This document shows, piece by piece, positions 3,759 through 63,942 of a stretch of DNA of 64,000 bases. Origin of the DNA: an uncultured delta proteobacterium (GTDB lineage: Bacteria; Desulfobacterota; Binatia; HRBIN30; BPIQ01); contig CAVXGR010000009.1 of assembly GCA_963761335.1 (NCBI GenBank), positions 58,545 through 122,544 on the forward strand. Direction: 5' to 3'. Numbering within the stretch: position 1 is the first letter of the stretch; each line of letters begins with the position of its first letter. The notes beneath the pieces were generated by a model that did no database searches, was not told where the DNA came from, and saw only the letters and a program-made list of their open reading frames with translations. The translations under genes and the position numbers were made by a program.

Positions 3759-3813
3759 TTCACCGCGGGACAGCGTGACGTCGGCGGCGGCTCTGTGCTA
3801 GGCTCCGCGGCGC

Positions 3814-4819: not shown

Positions 4820-4894
4820 GGCATCCTCCTGGCTCTGCACGATGGGCGCAATCCGCGGGAGGCGCAAGCTCCGCCGCGGCGCCGGCGCCGGCGG

Positions 4895-6501: not shown

Positions 6502-6510
6502 GGCGATCGC

Positions 6511-47359: not shown

Positions 47360-47384
47360 CACCGAGCGGCCGCGCCGCGGCGAG

Positions 47385-48188
47385 CTACTGGCGCCGCGCG
47401 ATGAAGCGTCCCTGGGCAACCTTGCCGGCGTGCGCCAATTCCCGGATGAAGGCGAACTCGCCGGCCACCGCCTGCAGCGCCTCCATGTTGAAGCCGATGA
47501 TTTTCAGCGCATCGAAGGTGAGCTGCATGTCGACCATGTTGAGATAGAGATCGATGTAGGCCGGAAAGCGCGCCGTGTCTTCTGCCGCCACCACCGTGCA
47601 GCCGTTCTCCTCGAGCAGTTGGCGATAGCCGGAAAGGTCCTGCACGTTGGCAAACTTCATTCCCTTCAGGAAGCGCTCCGCCTCCGCGTCCGAGAGACCC
47701 GACGGGCCCTCGATCCAGTCGGTGAAGGCGATCGTGCCGCCCCGTTTCACCAGACGCGCCGCCGCCGCGATGAGCTTCGGCTTGTCGGTCACGTAGCACC
47801 AGGCATCCTCCCCCCACACGAAGTCTGCGCTGCCGTCCGGCAGACCGCTGTTGCAGACGTCGCCGAGCACGAACTCAATGCGGTCATCGACGCCCTCTTC
47901 CTGACAGCGGGCGCGACCGCGATTCACCACCGTCTCGGTTGCATCCACGCCGGTCATCGCGGCGACGTCGCGGAAATGGACGAGGAAGCGCATGCCGGCG
48001 CCGTTGCAGCAGCAGAGGTCGACGCCGCGCATCCCCGCGCCGACACCCGCCCGCTCGGCCAGATCCATCGACGATTTGAAGCCGCCGATGTGGATCTGCT
48101 GGCCCATCAGAAGCTCCCACAGGTCTCCCTCCTGGCCGTTGTACACTGCGGTGACATCGTTCAGCCCGACGTTGTCAATGGATTTCAT
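47385..48188 (-). CDS. SAM-dependent methyltransferase (N-methyltransferase-like)
   Basis: IHIGG, DLCCCNGAG, DFVWGEDAWCY, IAFTDW. Confidence 0.8.
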   Translation of the reverse strand: MKSIDNVGLNDVTAVYNGQEGDLWELLMGQQIHIGGFKSSMDLAERAGVGAGMRGVDLCCCNGAGMRFLVHFRDVAAMTGVDATETVVNRGRARCQEEGVDDRIEFVLGDVCNSGLPDGSADFVWGEDAWCYVTDKPKLIAAAARLVKRGGTIAFTDWIEGPSGLSDAEAERFLKGMKFANVQDLSGYRQLLEENGCTVVAAEDTARFPAYIDLYLNMVDMQLTFDALKIIGFNMEALQAVAGEFAFIRELAHAGKVAQGRFIARRQ

Positions 48189-48378
48189 GCGCGCTTTTCC
48201 TCCAACGCGCACTCCCTACCGAATGGTTGGAAGGCCGGATATGACCGCGATCACGCGATGCGACGACGAACATCAGCGCGAACACATGATCATTCATCCT
48301 TGGACCGCGGCTCGGTGACCCCAACAGCGGTCACTTCCCGCCCCTCGCCAGAGGCGCCCGTGGGCGAAGACGGCGCTC

Positions 48379-49134
48379 TCAGCCGCCCAGCTTGCTGAGC
48401 ATGAAAGAAATGAGAAACCCGGCGACGGTGATCAAGCCGGCGAAGTCGTGGGCGATGGAGAATGCCTCGGGGATCATGGTGTCGACGAGCATCGCCAGGA
48501 TCGCGCCTGCGGCCGTGGCGATGGTCGCCGCGATGAGGCCCGGGGAGGAGCCGTCGAAGGCCCAGTAGCCAAAGAGCGACGCGACCCCGGAGAGAGCCGT
48601 GATACCGCCCCAGACGCCGAAGATGTACGCCGCGGGGCGGCCCGCCTTCTTCATGCCGGCGACGCTCGAGAGTCCTTCGGGAACGTTCGAGAGGAAAATT
48701 GCCGCCACGGCCACCAGGCTCACGGAGCCGCCCTCGAGCAGGCCGAGGCCGATGACCATGGACTCGGGAACCCCGTCGAGCAGGGCACCGACGGCGATCG
48801 CCAGGCCGCTGCCATTCTCCTCCTCCTCGGACGGCTGCTGATCCCCGGAGCGTTTTCGGTGGCGCGCACCGCATCGCGCCAGCAACCAGTTCGCGGCGGT
48901 GTACACCACCGCTCCCCCGAGGAAGCCCGCCGCAGTGCCCGCGAAGCCGCCGCGGCGATAGGCATCGTCCATGAGCTCGAAGGCCAGTGCCGATATGAGG
49001 ACCCCGCTCCCGAAGGCCATGATCGCCGCAATCAGACGCTGCGGCACCTCCATCAGGTAGGCCACCGCCGCGCCGATCAGCAGCGCGCAGCCGGCCAGCA
49101 GCCCCCAAAGTCCCGCTTCGACCCAAACTGGCAT
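48379..49134 (-). CDS. ZIP family metal transporter
   Basis: MAFGSGVL, LDGVPES, SNVPEG, DTMIPEAF. Confidence 0.9.
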   Translation of the reverse strand: MPVWVEAGLWGLLAGCALLIGAAVAYLMEVPQRLIAAIMAFGSGVLISALAFELMDDAYRRGGFAGTAAGFLGGAVVYTAANWLLARCGARHRKRSGDQQPSEEEENGSGLAIAVGALLDGVPESMVIGLGLLEGGSVSLVAVAAIFLSNVPEGLSSVAGMKKAGRPAAYIFGVWGGITALSGVASLFGYWAFDGSSPGLIAATIATAAGAILAMLVDTMIPEAFSIAHDFAGLITVAGFLISFMLSKLGG

Positions 49135-49281
49135 CGGGCAACTTTCTACATCGTCCAGGACTGCCGCGTCGAGACACACAGCGTGCCCATCGATCCTGGA
49201 AGCGCTCGCGTTCGCCGATGCCACATGTTCGCCTGTGCCACATTGACTGCCCCTGCCCGTTTACCTAGAGTCCGCCCCGTC

Positions 49282-49545
49282 ATGCCGAAAGCAGGCGACG
49301 GTACCGAATCGCGCTTCGTCTGGCGGCTGGTCGACGACGAAGCGTTGATCTTCGACCTCCGGTCGGGCGGCTTCTTCTCCCTCGATCGCGTCGGGGCCGA
49401 GGTTTGGACGGGGCTCCAGGGCGGATTGGAGCTGGCGCAGATCGTGCGCGAGATCGCGGGGAAATACGGCGTCGACGAGCAAACGGTGCAGCAAGACGTA
49501 TCCGAGCTGCTCGACGAGCTGAGCCGGGAAGGATTGATGGAGTGA
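49282..49545 (+). CDS. PqqD family / RiPP recognition element (RRE) protein
   Basis: 87 aa: WRLVDDEALIFDLRSGGFFSLDRVGAEVW...IVREIAGKYGVDEQTVQQDVSELLDELSREGL. Confidence 0.9.
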   Translation: MPKAGDGTESRFVWRLVDDEALIFDLRSGGFFSLDRVGAEVWTGLQGGLELAQIVREIAGKYGVDEQTVQQDVSELLDELSREGLME

Positions 49546-49548
49546 GCA

Positions 49549-49713
49549 ATGGCCAAGGCAGACCGCACCTCGACCGAGAAACGCGGAGACAAAGCGGAAA
49601 AGACTCCTCCTGAACCCCGTCACCCTGCGGCGACCCCGGTGTACGAGAAGCCGCGTCTCCGGCGCTACGATCAGATCGACCAGGTCAAACCCTACGGCCC
49701 GACCGAGATCTGA
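49549..49713 (+). CDS. Putative RiPP precursor peptide, 54 aa: MAKADRTSTEKRGDKAEKTPPEPRHPAATPVYEKPRLRRYDQIDQVKPYGPTEI
   Basis: Translated by hand (below the ORF-track cutoff); ATG 3 nt after the PqqD stop, preceded by GGAG; YxxPxL RRE-binding motif. Confidence 0.8.
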   Translation: MAKADRTSTEKRGDKAEKTPPEPRHPAATPVYEKPRLRRYDQIDQVKPYGPTEI

Positions 49714-49736
49714 GAACCGGCTCGCCCCAGTTCTGG

Positions 49737-51377
49737 CTAGAGAAGCTTCTGGATCTCGACGGCGCCGCGCGCGATGAGCTCGCGGAGCTCTTCGAGATGG
49801 CGCGCCTCGAGATCGGGATAGGGCCGCACGTCCGTGTCCGAGATGATCTCGATGTCGCGCAAGGAGAAACGAGCCAGTAGATCGCCGGCCGCCGCTTCGA
49901 TCTCCCGCGCCAGCGCCGCCGCCCGGCCGCCGCGCTCCGCCGCTCGGCGCCGAAGCTCTGTCAGCGTCTCCAGGTACCTCAGGTCGTAGAGTCCCGCGCT
50001 GAGGCCCTTCCACTGCAGCGTCGGAACACTGCCGCGCCGGGCCGGATAGGTCGCCAGGTGATCCTTGAGGGGGTGCCCTCCCGAGACAGCCCGCTCGTGA
50101 CTGTCCCATTCGTCGAAGTCGTCGTACGGCGAGTACGGGTGCTCCGGCAGATGCTGGTAGCAATACGGCGCGATCCCGTCGGCGCCGCTCTTCCAGAAAT
50201 AGATTCCCGCCAGCACGCGGTGCACGAGCGGCTTCTCCATGTGCGCGTGCCAGTAGAAATAGGTCGGGCGCCGCCGCAGCTCCGGAGCCTCGGACAGCAA
50301 AGAGAAGTACTCGCGGTTGCGCGGCAGGTAGTACAGCAGGATATCCGGCGGATGCCCGATATCGCCGGCGTCGAACAGGCGCCGCGCGAATTGCTGTTGG
50401 ACGAGCGCGCACATTGTCGGTACTCCCCGGCGCTTCGCCTCGCGGGTTTTGGCGATGTGCGCGGCCACGGCGTCAGGTCCGCGTGTGTCCATCTCGTCGC
50501 TGACATAGAGAACCGGCTGCATGCCGTGGAAGTCGACGGCGTCCAGCCGCGGCGGGTACGGATCCGTGAGCACGACTCTGCCCCGGAAACCGATCGCATA
50601 CGCGATGTCGACGGCGCGCTGCAGCAGCTCGGGGTCGCCCTCACCCAGCGAGATCGTGCGGAAGCCGTGCGCGTAGATGTCCTCCAGCTGCGTCCGGAAC
50701 AGCTCTTCCGACAGGTAGAAGCGCGGCCGCCCGCAGTCGAGGGTGCCGCGATACCAGAGAAAGCAATCGCGCCCGGACTCCGCCAGCATGAGCGGCAGCA
50801 CTTCGACCTCCAGCGGCAGGTCGGCGCTGCCGAGCGCCGGCACCACGGAGCGGACGCGCAGCGCGCCGCAGTAACGTCCCACCGCTGCGCCCGTGGGAAT
50901 GCGCAGGGCGATCCACAGCTGTTGCGTTCCATTTCGGTCGAGCGCGGTGCGCGCGGCGCCGTGCAGGCGCAGATCCGGCGGCGTGTAGAAAGGACCGCGC
51001 CGCCGATAGTGCCGCCAGTGCCTGCAACGGCCGCCGTACCCATCGCGCAGATCGGCATCCGCGTCCTTGAGTAGCAGCTCCGCGACCCGTACGCGGCTCG
51101 ATTGATAGACCCCGACCCCGGCCTGGTCCCATTCCCGGACGGCGAAGACATCGATCGCGGCGCTCGGGATGACGCCGCCGGCGTCGTCGCGCAAGTCGGA
51201 GACATCGATGACCACGTCGCGCATCGCCTCGCGGGCACGGAGAGACACGGACAGCGACACCATCTCACCCCGGCAACCGGTCCCGCTCAGTCGCGAGATC
51301 GGCGTCGCATCAGCCGCCGGGGCGCCGGGCAGGTGACGGACAAGGGCCAGCCACGGCGGCGGCTCCGCGATGGTCAT
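49737..51377 (-). CDS. Glycoside-hydrolase-like protein (GH123/DUF4091-like architecture), function unknown
   Basis: N-terminal RGE.VS.SVS beta-sandwich-like region, QLWIALRIP...GRY.G, C-terminal WKGLSAGLYDLRYL; no signal peptide. Confidence 0.5.
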   Translation of the reverse strand: MTIAEPPPWLALVRHLPGAPAADATPISRLSGTGCRGEMVSLSVSLRAREAMRDVVIDVSDLRDDAGGVIPSAAIDVFAVREWDQAGVGVYQSSRVRVAELLLKDADADLRDGYGGRCRHWRHYRRRGPFYTPPDLRLHGAARTALDRNGTQQLWIALRIPTGAAVGRYCGALRVRSVVPALGSADLPLEVEVLPLMLAESGRDCFLWYRGTLDCGRPRFYLSEELFRTQLEDIYAHGFRTISLGEGDPELLQRAVDIAYAIGFRGRVVLTDPYPPRLDAVDFHGMQPVLYVSDEMDTRGPDAVAAHIAKTREAKRRGVPTMCALVQQQFARRLFDAGDIGHPPDILLYYLPRNREYFSLLSEAPELRRRPTYFYWHAHMEKPLVHRVLAGIYFWKSGADGIAPYCYQHLPEHPYSPYDDFDEWDSHERAVSGGHPLKDHLATYPARRGSVPTLQWKGLSAGLYDLRYLETLTELRRRAAERGGRAAALAREIEAAAGDLLARFSLRDIEIISDTDVRPYPDLEARHLEELRELIARGAVEIQKLL

Positions 51378-52573
51378 CGGGCGCCCAGATCCTGCATTGC
51401 CGGGCCGCTGTGACGCTCGAGCAGCTCCCCGGCAATCAGCTCGTCGATCAGCTCGTCGAGATCGGCCGCCGCGGTCGCCGTGGGTATGTCGTATTCGGTC
51501 GCGACCCAGCTGAGAACTTCGTCCCGGGCGCGCTCGCAGGCGAGAAGTCGCCAGACACGGTCTGCCGTGCCGTCGAGCACAAAGCGCTGGCGCGCACCCG
51601 GCTGCACGACGACGGATCTCGGTCGATCATCGTAGAGCCAGTAGAGCGCCTGCGGCGAGATGCGCAACCGCATCCTTTGGGTCCACGTGAACCACGGCCT
51701 GAAGGCCGCGTCGACAGCGCTCGGCTGGATCGGCTCGAGCGGCGGCGCGAGACCGAAGCGCTGGGCCAGCCGCTGGAAGCGGAAGCCGAGACGGTAGCTG
51801 AGCGATTCCAGGACCTCTTCCGGGCGGCGGCCCAGGTGGACGTCTCGAAACGTGGTCCGCGCACCATGCGAGAGATACAAAGCCTCGATCTGCGCCGCAC
51901 CGCGCCCATACCAGAATCCCTTGGTGACGAAGCGCAGCCAGGAGCGGCCCTCATAGTGCGTGGCCGGTGCGCCCTCCACGTAGCCGAGGCGGTAGCCGCG
52001 CGCGATGATTCGCCATGACAGCTCGACGTCCTCGCAGGCGACGAGACGCTCGTCGAACCCCCCCACGCCTTCCAGCGCCGCACGCCGGTACATACAGCTC
52101 CCCGTCGACAGCCACGGGAAGAGATCGCGCTCGCCGCGGACGGAATTCGCCGCGTCGCGTTCGGCCGACTGCGCCGGCGAGCGCTCCAGGTAGCGTTGCA
52201 CGCGCGCGTCGAGTGCCCGGTGGTCGGTTCGGCCCTGGCAGCCGCCGAGCCGAGGATCGTCGAAGCGCCCCGCCAACCGCCGCACCCAGTCCGCGCCGAC
52301 GACCACGTGCGCGTCGAGAAAGGCGACGAGGGCCCCGTGCGTCGCCCGCAGCCCGGCGTTGCGGGCGGCGCCCCGGCCTCGCCGCGGCTCCGGCAACACC
52401 TCGGCACCGTGTGCGGCGGCGACGCAGGCAGTGGTGTCCGTCGAGGCGTTGTCGACGACGCAGATTCGCAGCGGCCCGGGATAGTCCTGCCGGCGGAGCG
52501 CGTCGACGCAGGCCCCGACGCGACCGGCTTCATCGCGCGCCGCGATGATCACGTCGACGGCGGGAGCAGACAT
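51374..52573 (-). CDS. GT2 glycosyltransferase fused to a C-terminal PqqD/RRE domain
   Basis: VVDNASTD, AARNAG, FLDAH, GGFDE...EDVELSWR; C-term FVLDGTADRVWRLL...YDI...ADLDELIDELIAGELL. Confidence 0.85.
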   Translation of the reverse strand: MSAPAVDVIIAARDEAGRVGACVDALRRQDYPGPLRICVVDNASTDTTACVAAAHGAEVLPEPRRGRGAARNAGLRATHGALVAFLDAHVVVGADWVRRLAGRFDDPRLGGCQGRTDHRALDARVQRYLERSPAQSAERDAANSVRGERDLFPWLSTGSCMYRRAALEGVGGFDERLVACEDVELSWRIIARGYRLGYVEGAPATHYEGRSWLRFVTKGFWYGRGAAQIEALYLSHGARTTFRDVHLGRRPEEVLESLSYRLGFRFQRLAQRFGLAPPLEPIQPSAVDAAFRPWFTWTQRMRLRISPQALYWLYDDRPRSVVVQPGARQRFVLDGTADRVWRLLACERARDEVLSWVATEYDIPTATAAADLDELIDELIAGELLERHSGPAMQDLGAR

Positions 52574-52591
52574 GGGAACGCCCATCCCGAA

Positions 52592-53614
52592 TCAGCCGGA
52601 AAGCTCCGAGTCGAGCAGCGCCGGCAGCCGGGGCAGATCATGGTCCGCGAACTCCAGGACATACAGGCGCGCGTCGCGGACGAGCGCGGCGACGGCGGCC
52701 AGGATGAACTCGCTGTACTGAGCGAAGGGATAGGGGGCCGAGCGAAACGGGCGCGCCCGAAACACGGTCATGGTTTCGCGCAGCAGGTCCTCAAGGGCGC
52801 GACCGCGGTCGAGCTTCGACAGAGTGGGCCGGGCCACCGGACCTCGCCGCAGCTGGATGAAGTCAGTGACCCGGCTCGGCTCCCGCCAGGACGTCCCGCG
52901 CGGAAGTTGTCCGAGGCGCACCGCCCACTTCCCGCCTTCATCGCGCTCGCCCACGACCTGCGGCTGAAGCGCCGGGAACATCCGCAGCGTGGCCTCGGTG
53001 ACATGCAGGGCATCGAGCGAGGCGAGCGCATAGGCGCAATCGCCGTCGAGGGTGATCAGTGTGCGGTCATCCGAGAGCAGATCGTAGCCGGCGAACAAGA
53101 GCTGGACTGCCGTCGTCGATTTCCCCGCTCCCGGCGCACCGGCCAGCAGAAGCGTCCGCTCGCCCCTGCGGAGCCCGGCGGCATGGATCGTTGCCAGCCG
53201 GTAGAAGGGCATCAGGAAGCCTTTGAGAATCGGCCGGACGACGTAGGCGAGCACCCATTGGGGGCTCTCCGTGTATCGTCCGGCGAGATTCGCTCGCACG
53301 ACGTCGTCGTCGAGACCGTACTCCATCTCGTGCCAGAGGTGCGCATGGTTCTCCGAATAGAACCGCCCGGCCTCGTAGTAGCAGGGGCCGAGCCCCAGAT
53401 GCGTCTCCGCGAAGGCGCCGCGCTCCATCGCCGCGATCGGCAGGGCGTGCTCGGAATCCTTGCGCTCGAGGAGGATCCGCAGCCGTCGCACGTGCGCGGG
53501 GAAACGGCTGGTCAGATCGTTCGACACGTACAACCGCTCCACCCACGGAGCGAGGTCGAGGCTACGACTCTCGATATCGAGTCTCAGAAAATGAAGGACG
53601 AGCTCGGTCTTCAC
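52592..53614 (-). CDS. HPr kinase-like P-loop kinase
   Basis: IHAAGL...LLLAGAPGAGKSTT...LLSDD motif set. Confidence 0.8.
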   Translation of the reverse strand: MKTELVLHFLRLDIESRSLDLAPWVERLYVSNDLTSRFPAHVRRLRILLERKDSEHALPIAAMERGAFAETHLGLGPCYYEAGRFYSENHAHLWHEMEYGLDDDVVRANLAGRYTESPQWVLAYVVRPILKGFLMPFYRLATIHAAGLRRGERTLLLAGAPGAGKSTTAVQLLFAGYDLLSDDRTLITLDGDCAYALASLDALHVTEATLRMFPALQPQVVGERDEGGKWAVRLGQLPRGTSWREPSRVTDFIQLRRGPVARPTLSKLDRGRALEDLLRETMTVFRARPFRSAPYPFAQYSEFILAAVAALVRDARLYVLEFADHDLPRLPALLDSELSG

Positions 53615-55010
53615 GGATGTCTTCCGGATGGAGCAGGCGGTCGATGGTGACAGCGAGCTGGTCGCTCCCCGCCAGCGCCAGGGTCAATCTGCAGAGATCG
53701 TACTTCGCTCTGAAGGCGTCGTAGTACTGGGTGTGAGGACACTCCGCTCGGGCCCCGAAGGCGTCGCGCAGCGCACGGAGCCGCTCGAACGAGTCGTCCG
53801 ACAGCCGCTCCTCCGCGACGACCGTCCGCAGCACGGCGTCGAGCTCTGCCGCGAGTGCCTGGAACTCCTTGAAGACGGTTATCGGCGTGAGGCTTCCCTG
53901 ATCCTCCAGATCGCTCAGCAGCCGGCGCATGGCCGCGGGATCGACGGGGCCGGCACTGCGGTACGAGCGGTCGATCTCGGCGATTGCGGCGCGAAAGCGC
54001 CGCAGCGATTCGTCCCAGTCATAGGCGGATCGTATGGTGTCGAATCCTCCCCGCCGCACACGCTCCTTCAGCGAATCGTCGCGCAGCAGCGACGCGAGCC
54101 TGGCGTGGAGATCCTGCGGATCGTTCGGACGGGCGAGCACGAGGTTGACGCCGTCGATCCCGTAATCGGACACGCCGTAGGTGCGGGTCGAGACCACCGG
54201 CACGCCGCAGGCAAATGCCTCGAGGGCGGGGAGCCCCAACCCCTCATACCAGGAGGTGCAGCAGTAGACGTCGCAGGTGCGCAGAATGCCCGGCATCTCC
54301 TCCTCGGTTGGGCAGTGGTGGATCTCGACCGGAAACGGCAGCCCGTCGAAGAGCCGCCGCCCGCGCTTTTCCTGCGTGACCAGCACGAGCTCCACCGGCC
54401 TCTCGACCGAGAGGCGCCGGAGCGCCTCGATGCCGTCCTTCATTCCCTTGTAGGGCATCAGGTAGTTGCCGACCATCAGCACGCGCGCCCGCGCCGCGAG
54501 CCTGGCTGGGCGCGGAGACACCGAGAAAATCGTCTTGTCGATGCCGACCGGCACATGGATCGATTCCTTGCCCAGTCGCTCTTTGATGAGGCGCTGCACC
54601 GCTCGCGAGCTGGCGATGATCGGCACCGGCAGGCGGTAGAGGTTGGCGAACGCCGGGGATTCCGCCATGAAGTCCGCGAATGTCGGGCCAGCGGCGTGGT
54701 GGAACGCCTCGTAGTCCTGGCAGAAGAAGATCGCCCGCGCCCTGCCCAGCAGCGGCAGGACCATCGGCAGGAGAAAGGCGTTCGCGACCAGCACGAAGTC
54801 GTAGCTGGGCAGGTCGGCTTGTTCGAGATCGCGCATCGGCAGGAGCGGTGCGCGAAGCCTGCACCAGCGCGGCGGACCGGCGAAGGAGAACAGATGGACC
54901 GACTCGTCGACGTCTGCCAGGCGATTGGCGATCTCGAATACGACCTTCACCCCGCCGCTGAGCGCAGTCGTCGGTAGACAGAAGAGGAGCCGCTTACGAG
55001 CACCGTCCAT
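53562..55010 (-). CDS. GT4 glycosyltransferase (WsaF-like N-terminus)
   Basis: SGGVKVVFEIANRL, FCQDYE, KG..DG, SWYEGLGLPALEAFACG. Confidence 0.88.
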   Translation of the reverse strand: MDGARKRLLFCLPTTALSGGVKVVFEIANRLADVDESVHLFSFAGPPRWCRLRAPLLPMRDLEQADLPSYDFVLVANAFLLPMVLPLLGRARAIFFCQDYEAFHHAAGPTFADFMAESPAFANLYRLPVPIIASSRAVQRLIKERLGKESIHVPVGIDKTIFSVSPRPARLAARARVLMVGNYLMPYKGMKDGIEALRRLSVERPVELVLVTQEKRGRRLFDGLPFPVEIHHCPTEEEMPGILRTCDVYCCTSWYEGLGLPALEAFACGVPVVSTRTYGVSDYGIDGVNLVLARPNDPQDLHARLASLLRDDSLKERVRRGGFDTIRSAYDWDESLRRFRAAIAEIDRSYRSAGPVDPAAMRRLLSDLEDQGSLTPITVFKEFQALAAELDAVLRTVVAEERLSDDSFERLRALRDAFGARAECPHTQYYDAFRAKYDLCRLTLALAGSDQLAVTIDRLLHPEDIREDRARPSFSETRYRES

Positions 55011-55091
55011 CGCTGGCGATACTAGCGGCAACCGCCGACGTCCGGAAGTAGACGACTTCTGATGGCACTGCCCTAACTTGGGCTGGGGGAT

Positions 55092-55311
55092 CGCGCCGCG
55101 AAGCGGCGCAGGCATGTAGCCCCGGGTCGGAGACCCGGGGATCCCGGGTCCGCCTTCCCCGATGCGCCCCGCCAGGGGCGCAGGCGTGCAAGCCCGGGGG
55201 CAGAGGCCTGTGTCAAAACCGCGCCCGCGCCCCTGGCGGGGCGCCAACGGACGTCGCCTTCGGGATCCCCGGGTCTCGACCCGGGGCTACACGCCTGCGC
55301 CCCTCCGGGGC
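55092..55311. repeat. GTAG-type REP-like doublet with an internal GAGGCCTGTGTCAAAAC end, between divergent operons
   Basis: GGCATGTAGCCCCGGG...CCCGGGG and its inverted partner CCCGGG...CCCGGGGCTACAC. Confidence 0.7.
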
Positions 55312-55399
55312 AAATGATCTCCGAGCTCAAGGCCACAGATGCAATAGGACAGTACTCTTTTGATTCCTACATTCGAGTTCAATACAGTCGCGCGCGCCG

Positions 55400-56446
55400 A
55401 TGTCCGATTCCGACGCAAGACCGATCGTGAGTCTCTGCCTGGGGGCGTACGCCGGCGCCGATCGGGCGGCAGCAAATCTGTCCCTCACCACCGGGCTCTC
55501 CCGCCACGTCACGCTCTCGAGCTCGGATCCGCGCAGCCCCGAGGTCGCTTTCATGGTCGCCCACCTGCGCGAGCGGCGTCCGGCGCTGGTGATCTTCAAT
55601 GGCTGGAGCGCCGTCTACGCGAGCATCCTCACCGCCTTGCGCCGCCAACCGATCCGGTTCGCCGTCCTCTGGCACAGCAGTCCGGGCCAGACTGATCTGT
55701 CGGACGAGTGGCCGGCGCTGTCGGAGATCATCGGCAACCGCCGCATCGCGCACCTGCTGTTCGCCAACGAGTCGCTGCGCGAGACACTTGCCCCGCGACT
55801 GCGGAACACCCACCATCTTCCCGACACGCTCGCGGAAGCCGAGTGGGAGGGCCAGCGTGAGGATCATCCCCCTTCCCGCACCGGTCGCGCGCGGCGCGCG
55901 CAGATCACGCTCTTCGCCCAGCCGGCCGAGGCGGCGCGCAAGAACATCACCGGCTGCTTGCTGGCGCTCTCCAGCCTGCGAAGCCGAATCGTCCTCCATC
56001 TCAATGGGCTGTCGCACCAGCCGCGCTACCGCATGCTGCTCGACCTGCTCGGCATCCGCTACCGGGACTGGGGCTGGATGGAGCCGCAGCGGTACGCGGC
56101 GGTCGTGGGCGCGGCCTCCGTCGGCCTGCAGGTGTCGTTCGCCGAGACGTACGGGTACGTCGTCGCCGAACATCTCGCACGCGGCGTCCCGACCGTCGGG
56201 ACCTCTGCGGTTCCGGTCCTGGCGCGATTGTCCCCGGCCGTGCGCCGTCGTCTGATGGTCACCAACCCCGACGATCCCGGCGAGATTCGCGCCAAGCTGC
56301 GCTTCCTGCTCGACCATCCTCGCCTTGCGGCGACGGTCGGCGAGCGCGCGCGCCTCGAGTCGTCCCGCTGGAACCGGCGGGACATCGCCAAGGCGACTGA
56401 CGTCCTGCAGGCGCTGCTGTCGCAGAGAGGCAAGCTGGCATCATGA
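55400..56446 (+). CDS. GT-B (GT4-like) glycosyltransferase
   Basis: RKNI, QVSFAETYGYVVAEHLARGVP. Confidence 0.75.
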   Translation: MSDSDARPIVSLCLGAYAGADRAAANLSLTTGLSRHVTLSSSDPRSPEVAFMVAHLRERRPALVIFNGWSAVYASILTALRRQPIRFAVLWHSSPGQTDLSDEWPALSEIIGNRRIAHLLFANESLRETLAPRLRNTHHLPDTLAEAEWEGQREDHPPSRTGRARRAQITLFAQPAEAARKNITGCLLALSSLRSRIVLHLNGLSHQPRYRMLLDLLGIRYRDWGWMEPQRYAAVVGAASVGLQVSFAETYGYVVAEHLARGVPTVGTSAVPVLARLSPAVRRRLMVTNPDDPGEIRAKLRFLLDHPRLAATVGERARLESSRWNRRDIAKATDVLQALLSQRGKLAS

Positions 56447-56724
56447 GGCAGTGCCGCAACCAGCCGCGATTTGTGGTGAGCCCCACCATCGCGCACCGCG
56501 AGATCGGCGGCACGCTGCTGCTCCTGCTGCCCGGCGACAGTCGTCTCTATGCGTTCAACGATACCGGACGCCTGGTCTGGCGCGGCCTGCTGCGCAAGCG
56601 CAGCACCGCGAGCATCGCCGCGACGATTGCCAGAACCTTCGGGATTCCCCTGCCGCGCGCCGAGCGGGATGTGCACGATCTGCTCGAGGATCTGCTGCGC
56701 CGCGGGGCGATCCGCCGTCTCTAG
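56443..56724 (+). CDS. PqqD family / RRE protein
   Basis: REIGGTLLLL...LYAFNDTGRLVWRGL...IA..F.I...AERDV.DLLEDL.RRGAI. Confidence 0.88.
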   Translation: MRQCRNQPRFVVSPTIAHREIGGTLLLLLPGDSRLYAFNDTGRLVWRGLLRKRSTASIAATIARTFGIPLPRAERDVHDLLEDLLRRGAIRRL

Positions 56725-56777
56725 AGAGGGCCGTCCTTGCGCCGAGCGAGCGAGGTTTGCCATACTCCGCCGGCCGC

Positions 56778-57923
56778 ATGACGGAACCGATCGCCCAGAC
56801 CGTCGACCCGTCGCCGGCGCCGTTCGCCGTCTGCACGATCATCTGGAAGAACTACCTCGCCCACGCGCGCGCGCTCGGCCAGTCGCTTCGCGCCCAGCAT
56901 CCCGACATCCCCTTCATCGTGCTCCTCGCCGATCGTGTCGACGGCTACTTCGACGCCGCCCGCGAAGACTTCGAGGTCGTCGAGATCGAGCAGCTCGGCA
57001 TCCCGGAGGTGCGACGGTTCTGCTTTCAGTACTCTCCGTTCCTGCTCAACACGGCGGTGAAACCGTGGTTGCTTGCCTACCTGTTGGCACAGCGCGGAAT
57101 GCGCCGCGTGCTCTATCTCGATGCCGACATCCTGGTGCTCGATTGTCTCGCCGATCTCGCCGCGCTGCTCGACCGCTACTCGATCGTATTGACCCCGCAC
57201 CTGACGGCGACGGCCACGGACCCGTACACGGTCGCCAGCGTCGAGCGGGCGATGCTGCTCTTCGGCGCCTACAACCTCGGCTTCATCGGCGTCGGACGGT
57301 CCGAGACCACGGATCGATTCCTCGTCTGGTGGCAGGACCGCCTGCGGCGGGACTGTCTCCTGGATCCGCCACGGGGCCTGTTCGTTGATCAGAAGTGGAT
57401 CGATCTGGTGCCCGGGCTCTTCGACGGCGTCCACGTCCTGCGCGATCCGACGTACAACGTGGCGCGCTGGAATCTCCATTCCCGAGCCCTCACCATTCGG
57501 GACGACCAAGTGCTCGTCGACGGCATGCCGTGCCGATTCTTCCATTTCAGCGGCTTCGATCCTCGCTGCGGTGAGGTGGCGAAGGGCAATCGGTTCTACA
57601 CGTTCGAGCGGCTCGGCGAGGCGGCAGTCCTGTATCGGCGCTATGCCGAGATGCTGCACCGCAACGGCTTCGCGGACACCATCAACTGGCCGCAGGCATT
57701 TTCGGTCTTCGACAACGGTGTGCCGATCCCCGATGAGCTGCGGATGCGGTACCTGGCGATGGGTGACGAGGTCGCGAAGTTCGGCGACCCGTTCGCCAGC
57801 GCGCCGCCCGACAGCTTCTACTGCGCCTGGCGCGCCGAGCAGGCCGGCCTTCGACCACTGGTCGATCGGCTGCGACGGACCGTGGCGCGCGCCGCCTGGC
57901 GCGTTCATACAAGACTCCGATAG
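56778..57923 (+). CDS. GT-A glycosyltransferase (GT8-like)
   Basis: CTIIWKNYLAHAR, NTAVKP, YLDADI, YNLGF, DQKW.DL, YNVARWNL, FFHFSG. Confidence 0.85.
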   Translation: MTEPIAQTVDPSPAPFAVCTIIWKNYLAHARALGQSLRAQHPDIPFIVLLADRVDGYFDAAREDFEVVEIEQLGIPEVRRFCFQYSPFLLNTAVKPWLLAYLLAQRGMRRVLYLDADILVLDCLADLAALLDRYSIVLTPHLTATATDPYTVASVERAMLLFGAYNLGFIGVGRSETTDRFLVWWQDRLRRDCLLDPPRGLFVDQKWIDLVPGLFDGVHVLRDPTYNVARWNLHSRALTIRDDQVLVDGMPCRFFHFSGFDPRCGEVAKGNRFYTFERLGEAAVLYRRYAEMLHRNGFADTINWPQAFSVFDNGVPIPDELRMRYLAMGDEVAKFGDPFASAPPDSFYCAWRAEQAGLRPLVDRLRRTVARAAWRVHTRLR

Positions 57924-57932
57924 GCTCGCCGG

Positions 57933-58946
57933 ATGGTGCCTCCCCGCTTGGCGCGCCTGCGCTATCTGATCGTGGCGCCGGCGTTCCAGGCCTGGGATCT
58001 CGGCCGCTACTGCGAACGCCTGCTGCGCGCCGATCGCCTGGCGTGTGCGACCTTCGCCTACGGCGAGCGCCCGGGTGCGGAGCAGGAGACCCGGCTGCTG
58101 GAAGCGGTGCAACAGTTCCGTCCCCACATCGTCCTGGCGCTCAAGCTCCAGGGTATTCGGCCGCAGACGCTCGCGGCGATCCGCCGGCACGCCTTCGTCG
58201 CCCTCTGGTACGTGGACTGCTTCGGCGAATTCGTGCCCCGGTGGCTTGCCCCCCTGCTCGCCCATGTCGACATCTTCTTCACCAGCGCCGCCGGCTTGGT
58301 GCCGCTCTATCAGCGGCACACCGCCGCGCCGGTTCGCTGGGTGTACGAAGGCGTTCATCTGCCGAGCTTCCCGCGGCTGCGCGAGTCGACCGAGCGGCTC
58401 GCAGCGTATCGCAGCGAGGTGGCGTTCGTCGGTAACGTCCGGCACTCCGTCACCGCCACGCCGGCGACGCGCCAGCGCCTGCTGCTCGCCGTCCACCGCC
58501 GCTTCGATCTGCGGATTTGGGGACCGCAGGGACTTCCGTTGGACGCGCGCACGCGGCGGCTGCGGGTGACCGAGTGGCCGGCCTACAATCGAGAGCTCGC
58601 CCGCATCTGCGCCGCCGCCGCGATCGTGCTCGGCATCAACGAAGTGAACACGGTGGAGCGCTACTTCTCGAACCGCACCTTTCTCACTCTCGCCAGCGGC
58701 GGCTTTCACCTGACGCGTTACGTCCCCGGGCTGGAGCGCATGTTCGAAAATCGCCGGCACCTGGTCTGGTTTCATTCCGACGACGAGTGTCTCGAGCTGA
58801 TCCGCTATTACCTGCCGCGGCCGCGCGCGCGCCACGCCATCGCGCGACGTGGCCAGGCATGGACGCGACGGCGATACGGCATGCGCCGGAGCTGGCGGCG
58901 GATACTCGCGGCCATCGACGACGTCTACCCGCGGCGCGGCCCCTGA
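57933..58946 (+). CDS. CgeB-like glycosyltransferase (Glyco_trans_1_2)
   Basis: LWYVD, VAFVGN, LRIWG, IVLGIN...SNRTF..LASGGF.LT. Confidence 0.8.
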   Translation: MVPPRLARLRYLIVAPAFQAWDLGRYCERLLRADRLACATFAYGERPGAEQETRLLEAVQQFRPHIVLALKLQGIRPQTLAAIRRHAFVALWYVDCFGEFVPRWLAPLLAHVDIFFTSAAGLVPLYQRHTAAPVRWVYEGVHLPSFPRLRESTERLAAYRSEVAFVGNVRHSVTATPATRQRLLLAVHRRFDLRIWGPQGLPLDARTRRLRVTEWPAYNRELARICAAAAIVLGINEVNTVERYFSNRTFLTLASGGFHLTRYVPGLERMFENRRHLVWFHSDDECLELIRYYLPRPRARHAIARRGQAWTRRRYGMRRSWRRILAAIDDVYPRRGP

Positions 58947-58971
58947 GCCATCGCTCCCAGCGGTTGCCGGC

Positions 58972-60661
58972 TCACTCCTGCCGCCATCGCTGCCGGAGCG
59001 CCTGGGACAGCGGTTGCGCCGGAAGGCTCCACGACCAATCCACGGACGGCCGGACCCAGCAGACGCGTTGTGCCTGCAGCCCCCAGCGCCTCGACCAGTC
59101 CGCGAGCCGTCGGGCAAGGCGCCGCTCATCCGTCTCGTCGTGTACGGTGATCTGCCCGAAGTCCCGACCCGGCGGCGTGTTGCCGGAGAAACCATTGATC
59201 GTCGGCACCCCGGTCAGCAGCGCCGCCCACATCGCGTCGAGCTGGTGTTTGTCGTTCTCGAATCCGGAACGTCCGGCCCCGGACCCCGCCAGCGGCGTGA
59301 AGAGGAACGCGCCGCATTCGCCGCGGATGCTGCCGGCCAGCGATGCCACATCGCGGCGAACCGCGAGCTTGTCCCAGGACGGAGTCGTCTGCGCCTGCTC
59401 GAGTACGCCGATGGCGAGCACCAGCGCCAGCAGCACGCGGCGCGGACGCATCTCGTCGACGAAGAACGCCACCCCGAGCCCGGCCGGGATGAGCATCAGA
59501 ATGCCGATCCGCGCCACCGCGCGGATGGCGGCGGCACCGGGCACGACGGCGAAGACCAGCCGCCAGATCCACGCCCCAAGTGGAAATGTGGTGACGCAGA
59601 GAGCCAGCGTAGCGGCGACGAGCAGGATCAGGCGTGTCCCCGATCGCTCCGCCGCCAGTAGAGTCCGATGCCGGCGATGACACTCGTCGCCAAGCCGATC
59701 CCCAGCCGGTGCTCCTGATCCTGGACGAGCGAGCGAAACACTCGCACGCCGTACTGCCACCGATACAGTCGGCTGAACGGTCCCAGGTACAGCCACGACT
59801 GTGGCCTCGGCAGCATCGGCTCGATATCCGGCCACTGTCTGAACCCGATGCGACGCGCCGCCTCGAGATAGTGGGCGGCGAGCGGGACGGTGGCGGCAAC
59901 GGCGATTGCGAGTCCGATCGCGACCGCCGGCCAGCGGCGGCGCAGCGTCTCGATCAACACGCTGCGGTACATTGGCAGGACGCCGGCCCACAGGCCGGAT
60001 ACCAGCAACGCGAAGAGGAGGAACCAGCCGGTGTAGAAGCCGGTGTAGAGTTGCGCCACCACCGCGGCAAAGAAGACCGCGAGCCAGGCCACCGGGGCCG
60101 GCCGCCGCGAATCCTCCCGCCACTGTGGAAAGATGCGATAGAGCGAGTAGAGCGCCGCGATCACATAGAACTGGGAGAAGAGCTGCTCGTGCCCTACCTG
60201 ATTCACGCGCGGCGCGCCGAAGGCGAAGAGAAATGATCCGAACCCCGCGGCCAGGGGGCTGGCCCCGATGGCGCGCCGCAGCAAGAGCCAGAAGGCGACG
60301 AAGTCGAGCGACAGCACCGCCATCGACCAGAGCTGAAACGCCGTGTCGTAGGGCAAGCCGATCGTCCGCCAGATTGCATAGGCGGGCATGACGGCCAGCT
60401 GCACGTCGCCGAATGCGGCGACATCTGGGACGGGGAAGAAGAAGTCGGGGCTCCAGAGGTCACGGTGGCCACCCGAGGCCAGCCAGCGATACTCGTGCTC
60501 GAGGACGTAGTTGTGAACGTGTCAGGCAGCCGCTCGAAGCCGGTGAGCAGCGTGGGATGAAAGGCGAGCACCAGGCCGACCGCCCAGAAGGCGGCCGGCA
60601 TCAGCGCGTTGCGAAGCACGCGTCGTATGCTGACGGTTGCGCGTCCTCGATTGGCTGGCAT
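58972..60661 (-). pseudogene. YfhO-like / GT-C polytopic membrane protein, split by frameshifts near 60520 and 59650
   Basis: Three overlapping minus-strand ORFs join: HPTLL..|HNYVLEH..W...FFFP...|...IRAVARI...LDAMWAA..TG.PTINGFSG. Confidence 0.65.
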
Positions 60662-60777
60662 TTGCGTCTTGGATGACCTAGTCGTCGCGTCGATGCGACA
60701 GGCGCTGATATCGCATGCATCCACCGCGGAGCGACTTTCGTGAGCCATCGGCTTACGGCGCGCAATCACCCGGGTGC

Positions 60778-62925
60778 ATGTCTCGTCGCGAGGCCCCCTC
60801 AGTGAGAATCTTCTTCCACGGGAATCTGCGCCAGCTCAGCAGCTTCTCGATCATCAATCGGCAGATGATCGGCGGACTGCGCCGACTCGGTCATCACATA
60901 TCCGTATTCCCAACCGATGATCCAGCGGCAGCGCGCCCCAACCCTCCGCCACCCGACGTGTACATCTTTCACGGGCATCCCTGGGAAGCCAGGAGCGCGC
61001 CGGGTCGACTGAACATCTTCGCGCTGAACTACGAGTATCTGACTCCCAATCGCGCCCTGCGCCAGCTGGTGGCGCGGCTCAACGCCGCCTTCGACCTGGT
61101 CGTCGTACCTTCCGCGTTCGCGAAGCCGGTGCTGGCGGCGGCTGGTCTGCGCCTGCCGCTCGAGGTCGTCCCTTGGGGCTACGACCCGGTAGAGTTCCAT
61201 CCCGGCGTACACCCGGTGGCGCTCCCGACCGCGAAGTCCTTCGTGTTTCTCTACGTCGGGGCGGTGAACGAGCGGAAGGGCATCGACATCCTGTTGCAGG
61301 CGTATCTGGCCGAGTTCAGCGCCGACGACGATGTCGTGCTGGTCATCAAGGAATCCCAGCGCCACCCGACCTGGACGCGGTGGCTGTCCGACGTGCAGCG
61401 GCGCCACCTCGGCGATGGCGGCGATCACCACGCGGCCGGCCGGCGTCCCGAAGTGGTGTGGCTGCACGAAGCATCGCGCTCGGTGGCCGCCTATTTCGCG
61501 GCCGCCGACGTCGGCGTGTTTCCCCACCGCGGTGAGGGCTTCGGGCTGCCGATCCTCGAGTGCATCGCCAGCGGCCGCCGGGTCATCGTCACCTCGGGCA
61601 CCGGTCCCGCGGCGTTCTGCAGCGAACGCAACGCCTGGCGGATTCGCGCCAGCCGCATTTGCCGTCGCGGGCACGTGGCGCCGGAGCCCGAGGCGCGACA
61701 CCTGCGATCGTTGCTGCGGGCGGCGTACGCGCGCGGCAAGCCGACTGTTCGCCAGCGAGTCGGCACTGCGCGAACGGTGCGGGAGTGGACGTGGCCGCGC
61801 TCCGTGGCGGCGCTCGATGCGGTGATCCGGCGCCATCTCGACCGCCTCGACGACCGATCCATTTCAACTCAGCGGCGCGTCTCCGCAGTCAGCGCCAGGG
61901 CGCCGGTGCTCGCGTACGCGTTCCACTCGCGCGGCGTGACCAGCTGGAAGAAGCTCTGCACAGAGATCGACCGGAGCCTGGCCACGCGCTACGCGGGCTA
62001 CCGGGCGTTCACCAGTCGCGATCGCTTCGACCTGCGCGCCGTGGACGTCGTCCTCGGGCAGTCGGAGCACTGCCTCGAGGTGCTGCTCAAGGCGCGCCGG
62101 CTCAACCCCGGCGCGGCGATCATCGTGCACCAGGAGTGCACCGTGCTCGGCGACCGCGTGGCGATCGTCAATCGCGAGCGCAAGCGCTGCGGCCTCGCAC
62201 CGATCGCGATCAGGCCGATGGATTTCTGGCGCAATCGCTTGGAGAACGCCCTCGCCGACCGCTTCCTCGTGGCCAGCAGCGTGGCGCGTGCGGCTTCGTG
62301 ACCAACGGCTTCGCGCCGTCGGCAATCGACGTGCGTCCCTTACGGCATCCGCAGCGCCGCCTTCCATTTCCGCAGCCGCGCCGCGACGACCCGTTTTCTC
62401 TTCGTCGGCACCGACCCGTTCCGCAAGGGCGTGCGCCACCTGCTGGCCGCCTGGGATCGCGCTGCGTTGCCCCGAGCCGAGCTGATCTGCATTACCTCTC
62501 CGGAGGTGCTGCAGTCGACGCCGCTCCTCCGTTACCTGGTGCGCAATCCGAATATCACCATTCGGCCGCTGTGCTCGCCTCGCGAGTTCGTGCGACTTTA
62601 CCAGGAGATCGACTGCCAGGTGTTGCCGTCGCTGGAGGACACGTTCTCGGTGGCGGTGGGGGACGGCATGGGGATTGGTAAGCCGGCCATCGTCTCGACC
62701 GCAACTGGAATCCGGGATCTGATCACGCACGGAGTCAACGGCCATGTGGTTCCGGCGGGCAACGTCGATCGTCTTGTCGAATCCCTGCAGCACTTCGCCG
62801 CGGACCGCCGGCGACTGAGGACGATGGGGGAAGCGGCGCACGAAACGGCGCGCCGATTTACCTGGCACCGTTTCCGCCGAAGCGTCGGCGAGCTCGTGGA
62901 GACGGTCTGGGAGAAGGGGAGGTAG
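60778..62925 (+). pseudogene. Two-domain GT4 glycosyltransferase with frameshifts near 62290 and 62333
   Basis: Domain 1 RKGID...GEGFGLPILE; domain 2 RKGV...PSLEDTF...MG.GKP; frames rejoin as ...GFVTNGFAPSAIDV-PYG... Confidence 0.75.
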
Positions 62926-62931
62926 TGTCCC

Positions 62932-63942
62932 ATGCCGCCGCATCTCGAGCCGTTGGCAACCGACGAACGCCTCGCCGTCGCCATCCCGACCAAGAATCGA
63001 CCCAGCTATCTGGTCGCCCTGCTGGCGTCGCTGGTCTACCAGACCTTCGAGGATTGGCTGCTCGTCATCAACGACTCGAGCGATCCGCCGGTCGAGGAGC
63101 ACGCGGCAATCCGCGATCTGCTGACCCTCATCCGCTCGCGCGGCCATCTGGTGCGGACGATCCGCACGGCGACCGGTTGGGATCGACACCAGCAGGCCAT
63201 GGACACCGTACCGGCGGATGTCGAGCTCGTCCTTCGTGTCGACGACGATGTCATGCTGACGCCCCGGTTTCTCGAGGACGTGCAGAAGCCGTTTCGCCTC
63301 TTCGCGGATCGGCCTGTCGCCGCCGTTGGCGGCAGCGTTCCGGAGCCGCACCTCAAGGCGCTCGATCTGGCCCTCCAGCTCACCGAGAAGAGCTGGGCGC
63401 CGACGATCGACGAGCCGAGCTGGCGGTTGCAGGGCAACCACTACACGGCGCGGGAGGTGCTCGAGGTCGAGAGCCTGCTCGGTCATGCGATCTGCTATCG
63501 GCGCTCGGCGCTCGCGGCCGTGGGTGGCTGGGCGGTGAAGGGGTACTCCCAGCACGCCTTCCGCGAGGAGACCGACGCGTGCATGCGCTTGCGGGCCGCG
63601 GGCTACGAGCTGCTGTTCACCACCGAGGCGCTTGCGTGGCATCTCTACGCCCCCGACGGCGGCTCGCGACAGATCGAGAAGACCGCGGCTGGTGTGGTCC
63701 TCACCTCCGAGGTCGGCGAGCTGCGACTGGACGAGGCCATCTTCCGGAGGCGCCTCGCCGCCCTCAAACGCGACGGTCTGACGGATCGTACCCTGAAGCG
63801 CTATCGCCTCGTGGATCTCGCAGGCGACCGGCGGCGCGCGCTGCCGATGATCGGCCCCGCCGGCCGGGCCAAGCAGCTGGCGCGCCGAGGGCGCCGTGCC
63901 CTCGGCCGGGTGCTGCGCGGTCTTCTCGGGAAGCGCGTGTAG
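62932..63942 (+). CDS. GT2 glycosyltransferase
   Basis: IPTKNR, INDS, RVDDD, GGW...REETD..MRL. Confidence 0.85.
   Translation: MPPHLEPLATDERLAVAIPTKNRPSYLVALLASLVYQTFEDWLLVINDSSDPPVEEHAAIRDLLTLIRSRGHLVRTIRTATGWDRHQQAMDTVPADVELVLRVDDDVMLTPRFLEDVQKPFRLFADRPVAAVGGSVPEPHLKALDLALQLTEKSWAPTIDEPSWRLQGNHYTAREVLEVESLLGHAICYRRSALAAVGGWAVKGYSQHAFREETDACMRLRAAGYELLFTTEALAWHLYAPDGGSRQIEKTAAGVVLTSEVGELRLDEAIFRRRLAALKRDGLTDRTLKRYRLVDLAGDRRRALPMIGPAGRAKQLARRGRRALGRVLRGLLGKRV

Follow-up and report, generated by a model that had tools for sequence, protein, structure and literature searches.

What could be made by a gene cassette that combines RiPP (ribosome-made peptide that is modified after translation) recognition elements (RREs) of the lasso type, a short peptide, an HPr-kinase-like enzyme and several glycosyltransferases, and is accompanied by no lasso cyclase? 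The cassette lies in 64,000 nucleotides of the genome of an uncultured delta proteobacterium (assembly GCA_963761335.1), hereafter the window, which corresponds to positions 58545-122544 of contig CAVXGR010000009.1 (C9) and whose right edge, at window position 64000, is the end of the contig. A preliminary description, made from the sequence alone, had read positions 49282-63942 (14.7 kb) as one undescribed cluster. The feature is real, its kind is no longer undescribed, and the conserved cluster is about half the size first given, since only 49282-55010 recurs in other loci. With a probability of roughly 0.55, the RREs bind the cassette's own peptide, and the kinase and the glycosyltransferases phosphorylate and glycosylate its invariant C-terminal tail within the cytoplasm, with no ring closed and no leader removed.

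In this DNA of 66-71% G+C, genes were chosen by third-position GC and their products then compared with Pfam and NCBIfam, the family scans covering 18 open reading frames (ORFs) of 46418-63942. The conserved core begins on the plus strand with a discrete RRE, PqqD1 (49282..49545, 87 amino acids), and a peptide of 54 amino acids (49549..49713), whose start lies 3 nucleotides past the RRE stop codon with GGAG upstream. Four genes follow on the minus strand, encoding a glycoside hydrolase-like protein of GH123 fold (49737..51377, 546 amino acids), a GT2 glycosyltransferase fused to a C-terminal RRE (51374..52585, 403 amino acids; PF00535, 83 bits), a P-loop kinase of HPrK/PEPCK fold (52592..53614, 340 amino acids) and a GT4 glycosyltransferase, GT4a (53562..55010, 482 amino acids; PF00534, 80.5 bits), whose start was placed at Met 55010 from ortholog alignments. 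A minus-strand ORF at 49280-49549 was considered as the first RRE and has no family match, the RRE gene being on the plus strand. A hydrophobicity check of the core proteins found no typical membrane span and one borderline stretch in GT4a.

The order GT4a, kinase and GT2-RRE, then peptide and RRE, then the GH123-like gene, is kept in a metagenome-assembled genome (MAG) of the Chthonomonadales (locus L013), in two Abditibacteria (L014 and L015) and in genome G489, and it is partly visible in genome G595 and in metagenome contig L017, which carries the GT4 - GT4a - kinase part. A survey of gene neighbourhoods for a conserved peptide, as the preliminary description had proposed, found the peptide kept with the RRE, kinase, GT2-RRE, GT4 and GH123-like genes. 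In these loci the core enzymes are 42-58% identical to those of the window; the GT4a orthologs (46-58% identical) stand directly upstream of the kinase in all six. The family is rare: the kinase has 24 relatives at 47-83% identity among 5.8 billion proteins, and no ortholog of it was detected when 40 same-order relatives and 400 further genomes from the window's phylum were examined. When each species was represented by one genome, the scan returned the Chthonomonadales MAG and the two Abditibacteria; 401 genomes from the phylum to which genome G441 belongs yielded four carriers, two of them new; and a metagenome scan with the kinase profile returned 33 loci, with L017 as the sole ortholog and the others matching around the P-loop only. 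In the Chthonomonadales locus, a gene for a NAGPA-type phosphodiester glycosidase (108-851, minus strand) was observed at a distance of 2.5 kb from the cassette and separated from it by an M23 peptidase gene; this would be noteworthy if the glycan were phosphodiester-linked.

The genes of the right half (55400-63942) have no ortholog in these loci, where they find merely weak matches to unrelated GT4 genes, and therefore the conserved system is 49282-55010. The right half is a neighbour or add-on particular to this lineage, and as assembled here it is partly decayed; its operon, with a second RRE and glycosyltransferases, may use the same peptide. It would be improbable, in our estimation, that the whole of 49282-63942 is one exopolysaccharide or surface-glycan locus in which the RREs and the small ORF are incidental. 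The span does hold many glycosyltransferases (about eight genes were counted in 49282-63942) and a polytopic membrane protein, and a recent report places the clusters of linear polyphosphorylated peptides (LPP) and of paeninodin, to which we return below, within capsule loci too (PMC13381572). However, the Abditibacteria core occurs without the right-hand genes and between other flanks, namely an SDR gene and, further out, ribosomal protein L20 on one side of L014, an AraC-family regulator and glycoside-hydrolase genes on one side of L015, and xanthine-dehydrogenase-type genes on the other side of these islands. Moreover, the peptide is under purifying selection, and the Wzx/Wzy, Wza, ABC exporter and initiating phosphotransferase families are unmatched in the 18 scanned ORFs. 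Of the products envisaged in the preliminary description, a heavily glycosylated peptide or a peptide-primed surface glycan, a surface product made by the core alone is not favoured, since the core has no exporter or membrane protein; no protease or transporter was found among the ORFs scanned in the Abditibacteria islands either, which additionally hold a PF14907 nucleotidyltransferase, a second GT4 and a GT2 of the Glyco_tranf_2_4 family.

The peptide is the part of the cassette that changes least. The window peptide, which carries the anticipated YxxPxL motif as YEKPRL at residues 32-37, ends ...PVYEKPRLRRYDQIDQVKPYGPTEI; its N-terminal ~30 residues vary among relatives, and the invariant tail reads YEKPRLRRYDQIDQVKPYGPTEI. 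Among the 41 matching database clusters (49-64 residues), the tail YEKPxxRxYDQIxQVKPYGPxE has 16 invariant positions and three more that are nearly invariant; with the initiator Met there are 17 invariant columns, Y32, P35, Y40, Y49 and E53 among them. The end takes two forms, ...PYGP[S/T/R]E[L/I] in 21 of the 41 clusters and ...PYGPSE[L/F]EAG in the other 20. Compared with the window, the peptide of the Abditibacteria locus L014 is 88% identical over its last 25 residues, and the kinase of that locus is 45% identical. Over the last 25 codons, 18-22 of the 75 bases differ from each of four orthologs, which lie in DNA of ~51-55% G+C, with 10-16 changed codons synonymous and 3-6 non-synonymous. 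The change being mostly synonymous, the ORF is translated and under strong purifying selection. At position 52, 34 clusters have Ser, four have Thr and three have Arg. The Arg variant P0037 shares its contig statistics (11 contigs, the longest of 263,721) with the kinase ortholog P0010 and the GT2-RRE ortholog P0281; thus, a hydroxyl at position 52 is probably not the single obligatory acceptor, and the invariant Tyr40 and Tyr49 are alternative candidates. A tblastn search of the genome for peptide paralogs returned nothing beyond an identical copy on contig C28.

All three RREs announced in the preliminary description exceed the Pfam cut-off for PF05402 (23.4 bits) in the genome search, at 61.2 bits for PqqD1 (49339-49536, plus strand), 48.6 bits for a second discrete RRE, PqqD2, in the right half (56521-56712, plus strand), and 41.7 bits for the C-terminus of the GT2 protein (51422-51613, minus strand; 38 bits over residues 325-388 of the protein). 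By profile comparison the discrete RRE of the core is of the lasso B1 type, as had been expected: among solved structures the PqqD1 profile finds TbiB1 first (E 1.7e-21), next an entry named 'lasso peptide biosynthesis PqqD family chaperone' and then TfuB1, with the two NCBIfam models of lasso PqqD chaperones reaching 46.6 and 45 bits, both below their cut-offs. PqqD1 orthologs adjoin the peptide gene in L013, L014, L015 and G489. A complex of PqqD1 with the peptide was predicted at 0.50 against 0.02 for the best control, a result that the tool calls 'weak support'; the corresponding mark is reached by 116 of 157 solved complexes and by 2 of 215 mismatched pairs, at least 92% of contacts are common to the runs, and the partner has a predicted local distance difference test (pLDDT) score of at least 51. 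As RRE-leader complexes have already been solved, this score speaks for likeness more than for binding. PqqD2 has no ortholog in the other loci, with cross-matches of 26-31% to their PqqD1 only, and no small ORF with a YxxPx[LVI...] motif that could serve as a second precursor was found within 2.5 kb of it.

The resemblance to lasso peptide clusters goes no further than the RRE and the precursor motif. A B1-type RRE and a YxxPxL precursor are present, and a cyclase, a B2 peptidase and a core long enough for a ring plus tail are absent. In agreement with the preliminary description, profile searches detected no lasso cyclase, B2 peptidase or radical SAM enzyme on C9 and no YcaO protein in the whole genome, and the genome-wide search for B2 and cyclase genes that it had called for placed none within tens of kb of any of the 13 PqqD (PF05402) matches. 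More precisely, the eight Asn_synthase (PF00733) matches of the genome avoid C9 and C28 and none lies within ~80 kb of a PqqD gene, the one weak Transglut_core3 (PF13471) match (29.8 bits, C12:566377) is not on C9 and lies ~68 kb from the nearest PqqD gene, and the 63 radical SAM matches avoid C9 and C28. Many of the latter are packed in two stretches of contig C18, 548000-600000 and 936000-950000. A split lasso cluster, with cyclase and B2 peptidase elsewhere in the genome or past the contig end, could account for the B1-type RRE and the YxxPxL motif, and the contig does stop at 64000. Nevertheless, this is very hard to sustain: 17 near-invariant residues follow the motif, and the peptide ends two residues past position 52 (five in the ELEAG form), so that this short invariant segment leaves no room for a ring of 7-9 residues plus a tail; complete Abditibacteria islands contain neither cyclase nor B2, no Asn_synthase-like cyclase being found among the ORFs scanned in L013, L014 and L015; and the matches elsewhere in the genome are far from all PqqD genes.

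The enzymes that would act on the tail are recognizable by fold and motif. Pfam recognizes the HPr-kinase-like enzyme only weakly (Hpr_kinase_C, 18.7 bits, the cut-off being 33.3), and the enzyme is upheld by its family profile, in which HPr kinase/phosphorylase (HPrK/P) is the best solved relative (E 2.8e-5), and by its structure model (pLDDT 92.6). The model aligns over its whole length to phosphoenolpyruvate carboxykinase (PEPCK; Z 15.7), and four HPrK/P structures match its residues 139-340 (Z 12.1-12.9, root-mean-square deviation 2.5-3.2 Å). H144, the P-loop residues G159-G164-K165-T167 and D182-D183 are invariant in 23 sequences, and this motif, His / GxxGxGK[ST] / DD, aligns to the HPrK/P structure 1jb1. 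On modelled fold and motif, the product of 52592-53614 is an HPrK/P-PEPCK-like P-loop kinase. Scores for the models of the HPr-rel-A system stay below the cut-offs, the kinase scoring 44.5 bits against a cut-off of 200 with TIGR04352, over residues 142-193 only, and the RRE 31.2 bits against 35 with TIGR04353. The Pfam label PF27840.1 was observed on 13 of the 25 listed proteins of the kinase family (P0002, P0008, P0011-P0017 and others). A PADLOC scan for defence systems over 10 proteins gave a single match at the level of the P-loop (mad8, 16.8 bits). As for the GT2 domain, its nearest named family is MftF (TIGR03965), at 135.3 bits against a cut-off of 280. Its fusion to an RRE is conserved: of the 20 database clusters closest to it, 17 have both domains and three are shorter fragments; eight proteins named MftF occur among the more distant GT2 matches, without a PF05402 domain.

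In mycofactocin biosynthesis, too, a PqqD-type RRE binds the peptide from which the pathway begins, and MftF glycosylates a phenol derived from tyrosine. The window shares with it MftF as the nearest named family of the GT2 domain and differs in the sub-cut-off MftF score and in the absence of the radical SAM enzyme MftC, of MftD and MftE, and of an MftA-like peptide. Paeninodin PadeK and pseudomycoidin PsmK/PsmN are reportedly involved in phosphorylated or phospho-glycosylated lasso peptides. These share with the window a B1-type RRE, an HprK-like kinase acting near the peptide C-terminus and the addition of sugar, whereas the window has no cyclase, B2 peptidase or room for a lasso, and has GT2 and GT4 enzymes instead of a PF14907 nucleotidyltransferase.

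The nearest described counterpart is the LPP cluster, known from Paenibacillus alginolyticus as lppA-K-B-S-D-N and published in May 2026 (Popov et al., Nat Commun 2026, PMC13381572). In it, a linear peptide is made without a cyclase by means of a discrete RRE, the HprK-like LppK, a signal-peptidase-like leader peptidase, a nucleoside triphosphate (NTP) transferase and an exporter. There, the RRE presents the peptide and LppK polyphosphorylates Ser3 of the core; the precursor has a conserved N-terminal YxxPxVLxHQxIxFETxxS and a variable C-terminal core, and the system is said to be confined to Bacillota (PMC13381572). The window has in common with LPP a discrete lasso-type RRE and an HprK-like kinase; its peptide is likewise linear and carries a Y-x-x-P RRE-binding motif, no cyclase accompanies it, glycosyltransferase genes surround it, and its distribution is patchy. 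By contrast, the window lies outside Bacillota and lacks the SpI/SipW-like peptidase (LppS), the MsbA-like exporter (LppD) and the PF14907 NTP transferase (LppN), no ABC transporter family being matched in the 18 ORFs of 46418-63942; it adds the GT2-RRE fusion, the GT4 and the GH123-like enzyme, and its peptide is reversed, with a variable N-terminus and an invariant C-terminal tail, sharing only YxxPxL and a Q-I pair with the LPP precursor. By analogy, the cassette would work like an LPP or paeninodin-type tailoring set, yet it is not a member of either. The RRE-GT2 (PF00535) fusions had also been recorded, as a possible new RiPP type, in the RRE-Finder surveys (PMC7470986; PMC12710340), where, in the sections available, the same PF00535-RRE architecture is listed without peptide, cassette or function. 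With these two bodies of work, the cassette can no longer be called undescribed in kind; no description of this cassette or peptide itself was found in the literature searched, which took in passages of the RRE-Finder papers.

A possible bridge between LPP and the window is offered by the rest of the genome, which holds at least three further kinase-plus-RRE cassettes. A paralogous cassette on contig C12 (496178-500814; L053 4178-8814) comprises an RRE, a peptide ending ...VYQKPVLSKHEQLHGIGLGSP, a GT2-RRE fusion, an S26-type peptidase-like ORF with GRSMLP and KGDN motifs, an HprK-like kinase and a GT4, and contains no GH123-like gene. With RRE, peptide, GT2-RRE, kinase and GT4, its layout matches that of the window, and the cassette ties this architecture to the LPP system; it looks like an intermediate between the two layouts, and is itself LPP-like in layout outside Bacillota. 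The archaeal-type signal peptidase model TIGR02228 has one sub-threshold match in the genome, at C12:498168, inside this paralogous cassette (37.2 against 51.85 bits), and none on C9; no LppS-type signal peptidase was found among the ORFs scanned in L013-L015, and PF14907 has five matches in the genome, none of them on C9, and is present in L014, L015 and G489. On contig C28, positions 3635-6776 (L051) are a second copy of window 49229-52370 (99.2% over 3142 bp), with the RRE, the peptide, the GH123-like gene and a partial GT2-RRE gene; it runs off the end of a 6.8-kb contig, has a different left flank (PqiA and an ABC-auxiliary lipoprotein) and reflects either recent duplication or variation between strains within the assembly. 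Two other PqqD ORFs, C4:13548-14558 and C16:352758-353252, both on the minus strand, were seen to carry a C-terminal leader-like tail of their own, PYxxPxL...DLLALDPP (..PYRTPALEVYSDMADLLALDPP.. and ..PYEAPRLVIYRDMEDLLALDPP..), the first of them adjoining HprK-like kinase and PF14907 genes.

The GH-like protein noted at the outset belongs to the GH123 fold. The model of the product of 49737-51377 has a pLDDT of 95.2, and the first 18 Foldseek matches listed (ranks 1-20) are all GH123 or beta-N-acetylgalactosaminidases of groups 1-4 (E 8e-25 to 6e-19), the next family following at 3e-8. The GH123-type matches extend over the whole length with template modelling (TM) scores of 0.56-0.64 and 11-17% identity in the structural alignments, and Pfam GH123_cat has no match to the window protein. 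D294-E295 are invariant in 43 homologs; the profile alignment, which is weak along this stretch, sets them against the DE of NgaCa. In that family the DE residues form the pair that catalyses the cleavage of beta-N-acetylhexosaminides in a substrate-assisted manner (Sumida et al., Nat Commun 2024, PMC11087588). With its N-terminal beta-sandwich, (beta/alpha)8 barrel and adjacent Asp-Glu, the modelled protein is of the GH123 type, and it may hydrolyse beta-GalNAc or beta-GlcNAc linkages. It is alike to the GH123 enzymes and beta-N-acetylgalactosaminidases in whole-length fold and in the Asp-Glu pair, and differs from them in its low sequence similarity and in its setting within a peptide-modification cassette. 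A crude hydropathy check showed neither a signal peptide nor a membrane segment in it.

A hydrolase that is always present, together with the invariant tail and the lack of a protease and exporter, keeps alive two other roles for the peptide. One of them, unlikely in our view, is that the peptide serves as a reusable scaffold or primer on which a beta-N-acetylhexosamine (beta-HexNAc) (phospho-)oligosaccharide is built and then cut off by the GH123-like enzyme, the released glycan being the product. The near-invariant tail without a variable core, the absence of a protease and an exporter from the core, and a GH123-fold enzyme with the DE pair in 5/5 complete loci would all suit it, as would the top structural matches, which are oligosaccharide-releasing beta-N-acetylgalactosaminidases of groups 3 and 1 (8k2j, 8k2g and 8k2f). 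Scaffold-peptide logic is known from pearlin-type pathways; however, we know of no pathway in which a glycan is built on a peptide scaffold. In addition, the fold cannot tell endo from exo action, the hydrolase might merely trim or recycle the glycan, and the paralogous C12 cassette does without it. That a small glycan is synthesized in the cytoplasm in a peptide-templated manner, with the RRE-held peptide as a catalytic scaffold that is freed for another round once the glycan is cut off, appears rather unlikely; if true, the scaffold reading would be a sugar counterpart of the pearlin-type pathways.

The second role would be that of a regulator or adaptor rather than a substrate, with the peptide binding the RREs and activating or assembling GT2, kinase and GT4 for an acceptor encoded elsewhere. 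Short linear motifs conserved this strongly are typically those of binding partners, three RRE domains are present for one peptide, and the sole conserved hydroxyl besides the tyrosines is not invariant; RREs have also been reported to potentiate partner enzymes (PMC12710340). Against this, the invariant stretch extends 17 residues past YxxPxL, beyond what RRE binding should need, and the published systems modify their peptide, the paralogous cassette being taken to do likewise. Moreover, to our knowledge, the RRE-bound peptide is the substrate in every characterised RRE system. We regard a purely regulatory peptide as rather doubtful.

The preferred reading remains modification of the cassette's own peptide. 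Given the genes, the folds and catalytic motifs of their products, the synteny in six other loci and the purifying selection on the peptide, a route may be drawn up, its steps being suggested by sequence, models and analogy. The discrete RRE and the GT2-fused RRE would hold the YxxPxL segment (residues 32-37), and the GT2 domain would add a first sugar to the tail, with Tyr49, Tyr40 or Ser/Thr52 as candidate sites. The HPrK-fold kinase could phosphorylate the peptide or that first sugar, and GT4a could extend the glycan, in other loci perhaps together with the second GT4, the further GT2 and the PF14907 nucleotidyltransferase. The GH123-like enzyme may trim or release a beta-HexNAc-linked glycan.

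Several observations weigh against this reading. Most ribosomal natural products have variable cores, unlike the near-invariant tail of 23 residues seen here, which suits a scaffold, a cofactor precursor or a regulator equally well. An Arg occupies position 52 in 3/41 clusters, and LppK refuses Thr or Tyr in place of Ser (PMC13381572). The core contains no protease, exporter or membrane protein, and the window has neither the PF14907 nucleotidyltransferase nor the second GT2 of the Abditibacteria loci. The rarity of the family (0/40, 0/400 and 4/401) and the fact that the chemistry is predicted count on the same side.

The cassette extends the newly described kinase-plus-RRE linear peptide systems beyond Bacillota. 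It also provides a small, concrete test case for the RRE-glycosyltransferase fusions, which the available sections of the earlier surveys present without peptide or function. With five soluble enzymes or domains and one short peptide, the chemistry could be reconstituted and read by mass spectrometry. Seventeen invariant peptide columns across genomes whose enzymes are about half identical are unusual for a ribosomal natural product, and such a tail suggests that the product is fixed, or that the peptide acts as a scaffold or in the manner of a cofactor, rather than a variable antibiotic.

The surroundings of the core can be described more briefly. The left-hand neighbours (a ZIP-type transporter, a methyltransferase, EamA, an SNF2 helicase and an RND pump) appear unrelated to it. 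In the right half, the accessory genes begin on the plus strand with GT4b (55400..56446), weakly GT4-like with 24.8 bits for PF13692 against a cut-off of 27, followed by PqqD2 (56443..56724, 93 amino acids; PF05402 48.5 bits in the ORF scan), by a probable GT-A (GT8-like) glycosyltransferase (56721..57923, 400 amino acids; PF01501 12.7 bits, E 0.096) and by a CgeB-like Glyco_trans_1_2 protein (57933..58946; PF13524 76.4 bits). Database neighbours of the GT8-like protein in the Atlas are called 'glycosyl transferase family protein', with GT8 on 13% of the members of one cluster; homologs occur at ~39% identity in 2/40 relatives and at 29% in a third, in short loci of about 3-4 kb with no RRE beside the gene. 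After a polytopic membrane protein on the minus strand (58972..60404), the plus strand resumes with a tandem GT4 protein (60715..62925) and with GT2b (62932..63942; PF00535 29.8 bits, NCBIfam HpsN-like 50.6 bits, below its cut-off), the last gene before the contig end. Of the roughly seven soluble glycosyltransferases first counted, the two GT2 enzymes, the GT4 enzymes at 53562 and 60715 and the CgeB-like protein hold up, the gene at 55400 stays below the cut-off and the GT8-like assignment is a hint only. The 'GT-C-like' protein is the polytopic membrane protein at 58972..60404, which has no family match.

Two of these genes appear to be interrupted. The membrane-protein gene, as judged from third-position GC, switches frame near 59630 (58972-~59640 and 59628-60404) and perhaps again near 60400, with a third frame possibly reaching ~60700, which would indicate either a frameshifted gene or an assembly error; a 258-residue piece of its product has four hydrophobic segments, and no Pfam match was obtained even at E 5. 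The tandem GT4 protein has GT4 domains on either side of an in-frame TGA (62299-62301), which lies inside the second GT4 domain and separates 528 from 207 amino acids in the same frame. A low-depth contig from a marsh-metagenome run (X2) has a base inserted behind 62294 and one missing at 62334, and would read past the TGA; contigs of five DNA runs contain at most 0.36 of the sampled words, and four of them yielded short pieces over the region. Between the two divergent operons, outside the system, lies a palindromic repeat of ~274 bp (55072..55344) with nested inverted repeats, dozens of copies of which, at 85-97% identity, occur on most contigs of the genome; by its sequence, it looks like a dispersed repeat of the MITE (miniature inverted-repeat transposable element) or REP (repetitive extragenic palindromic) kind.

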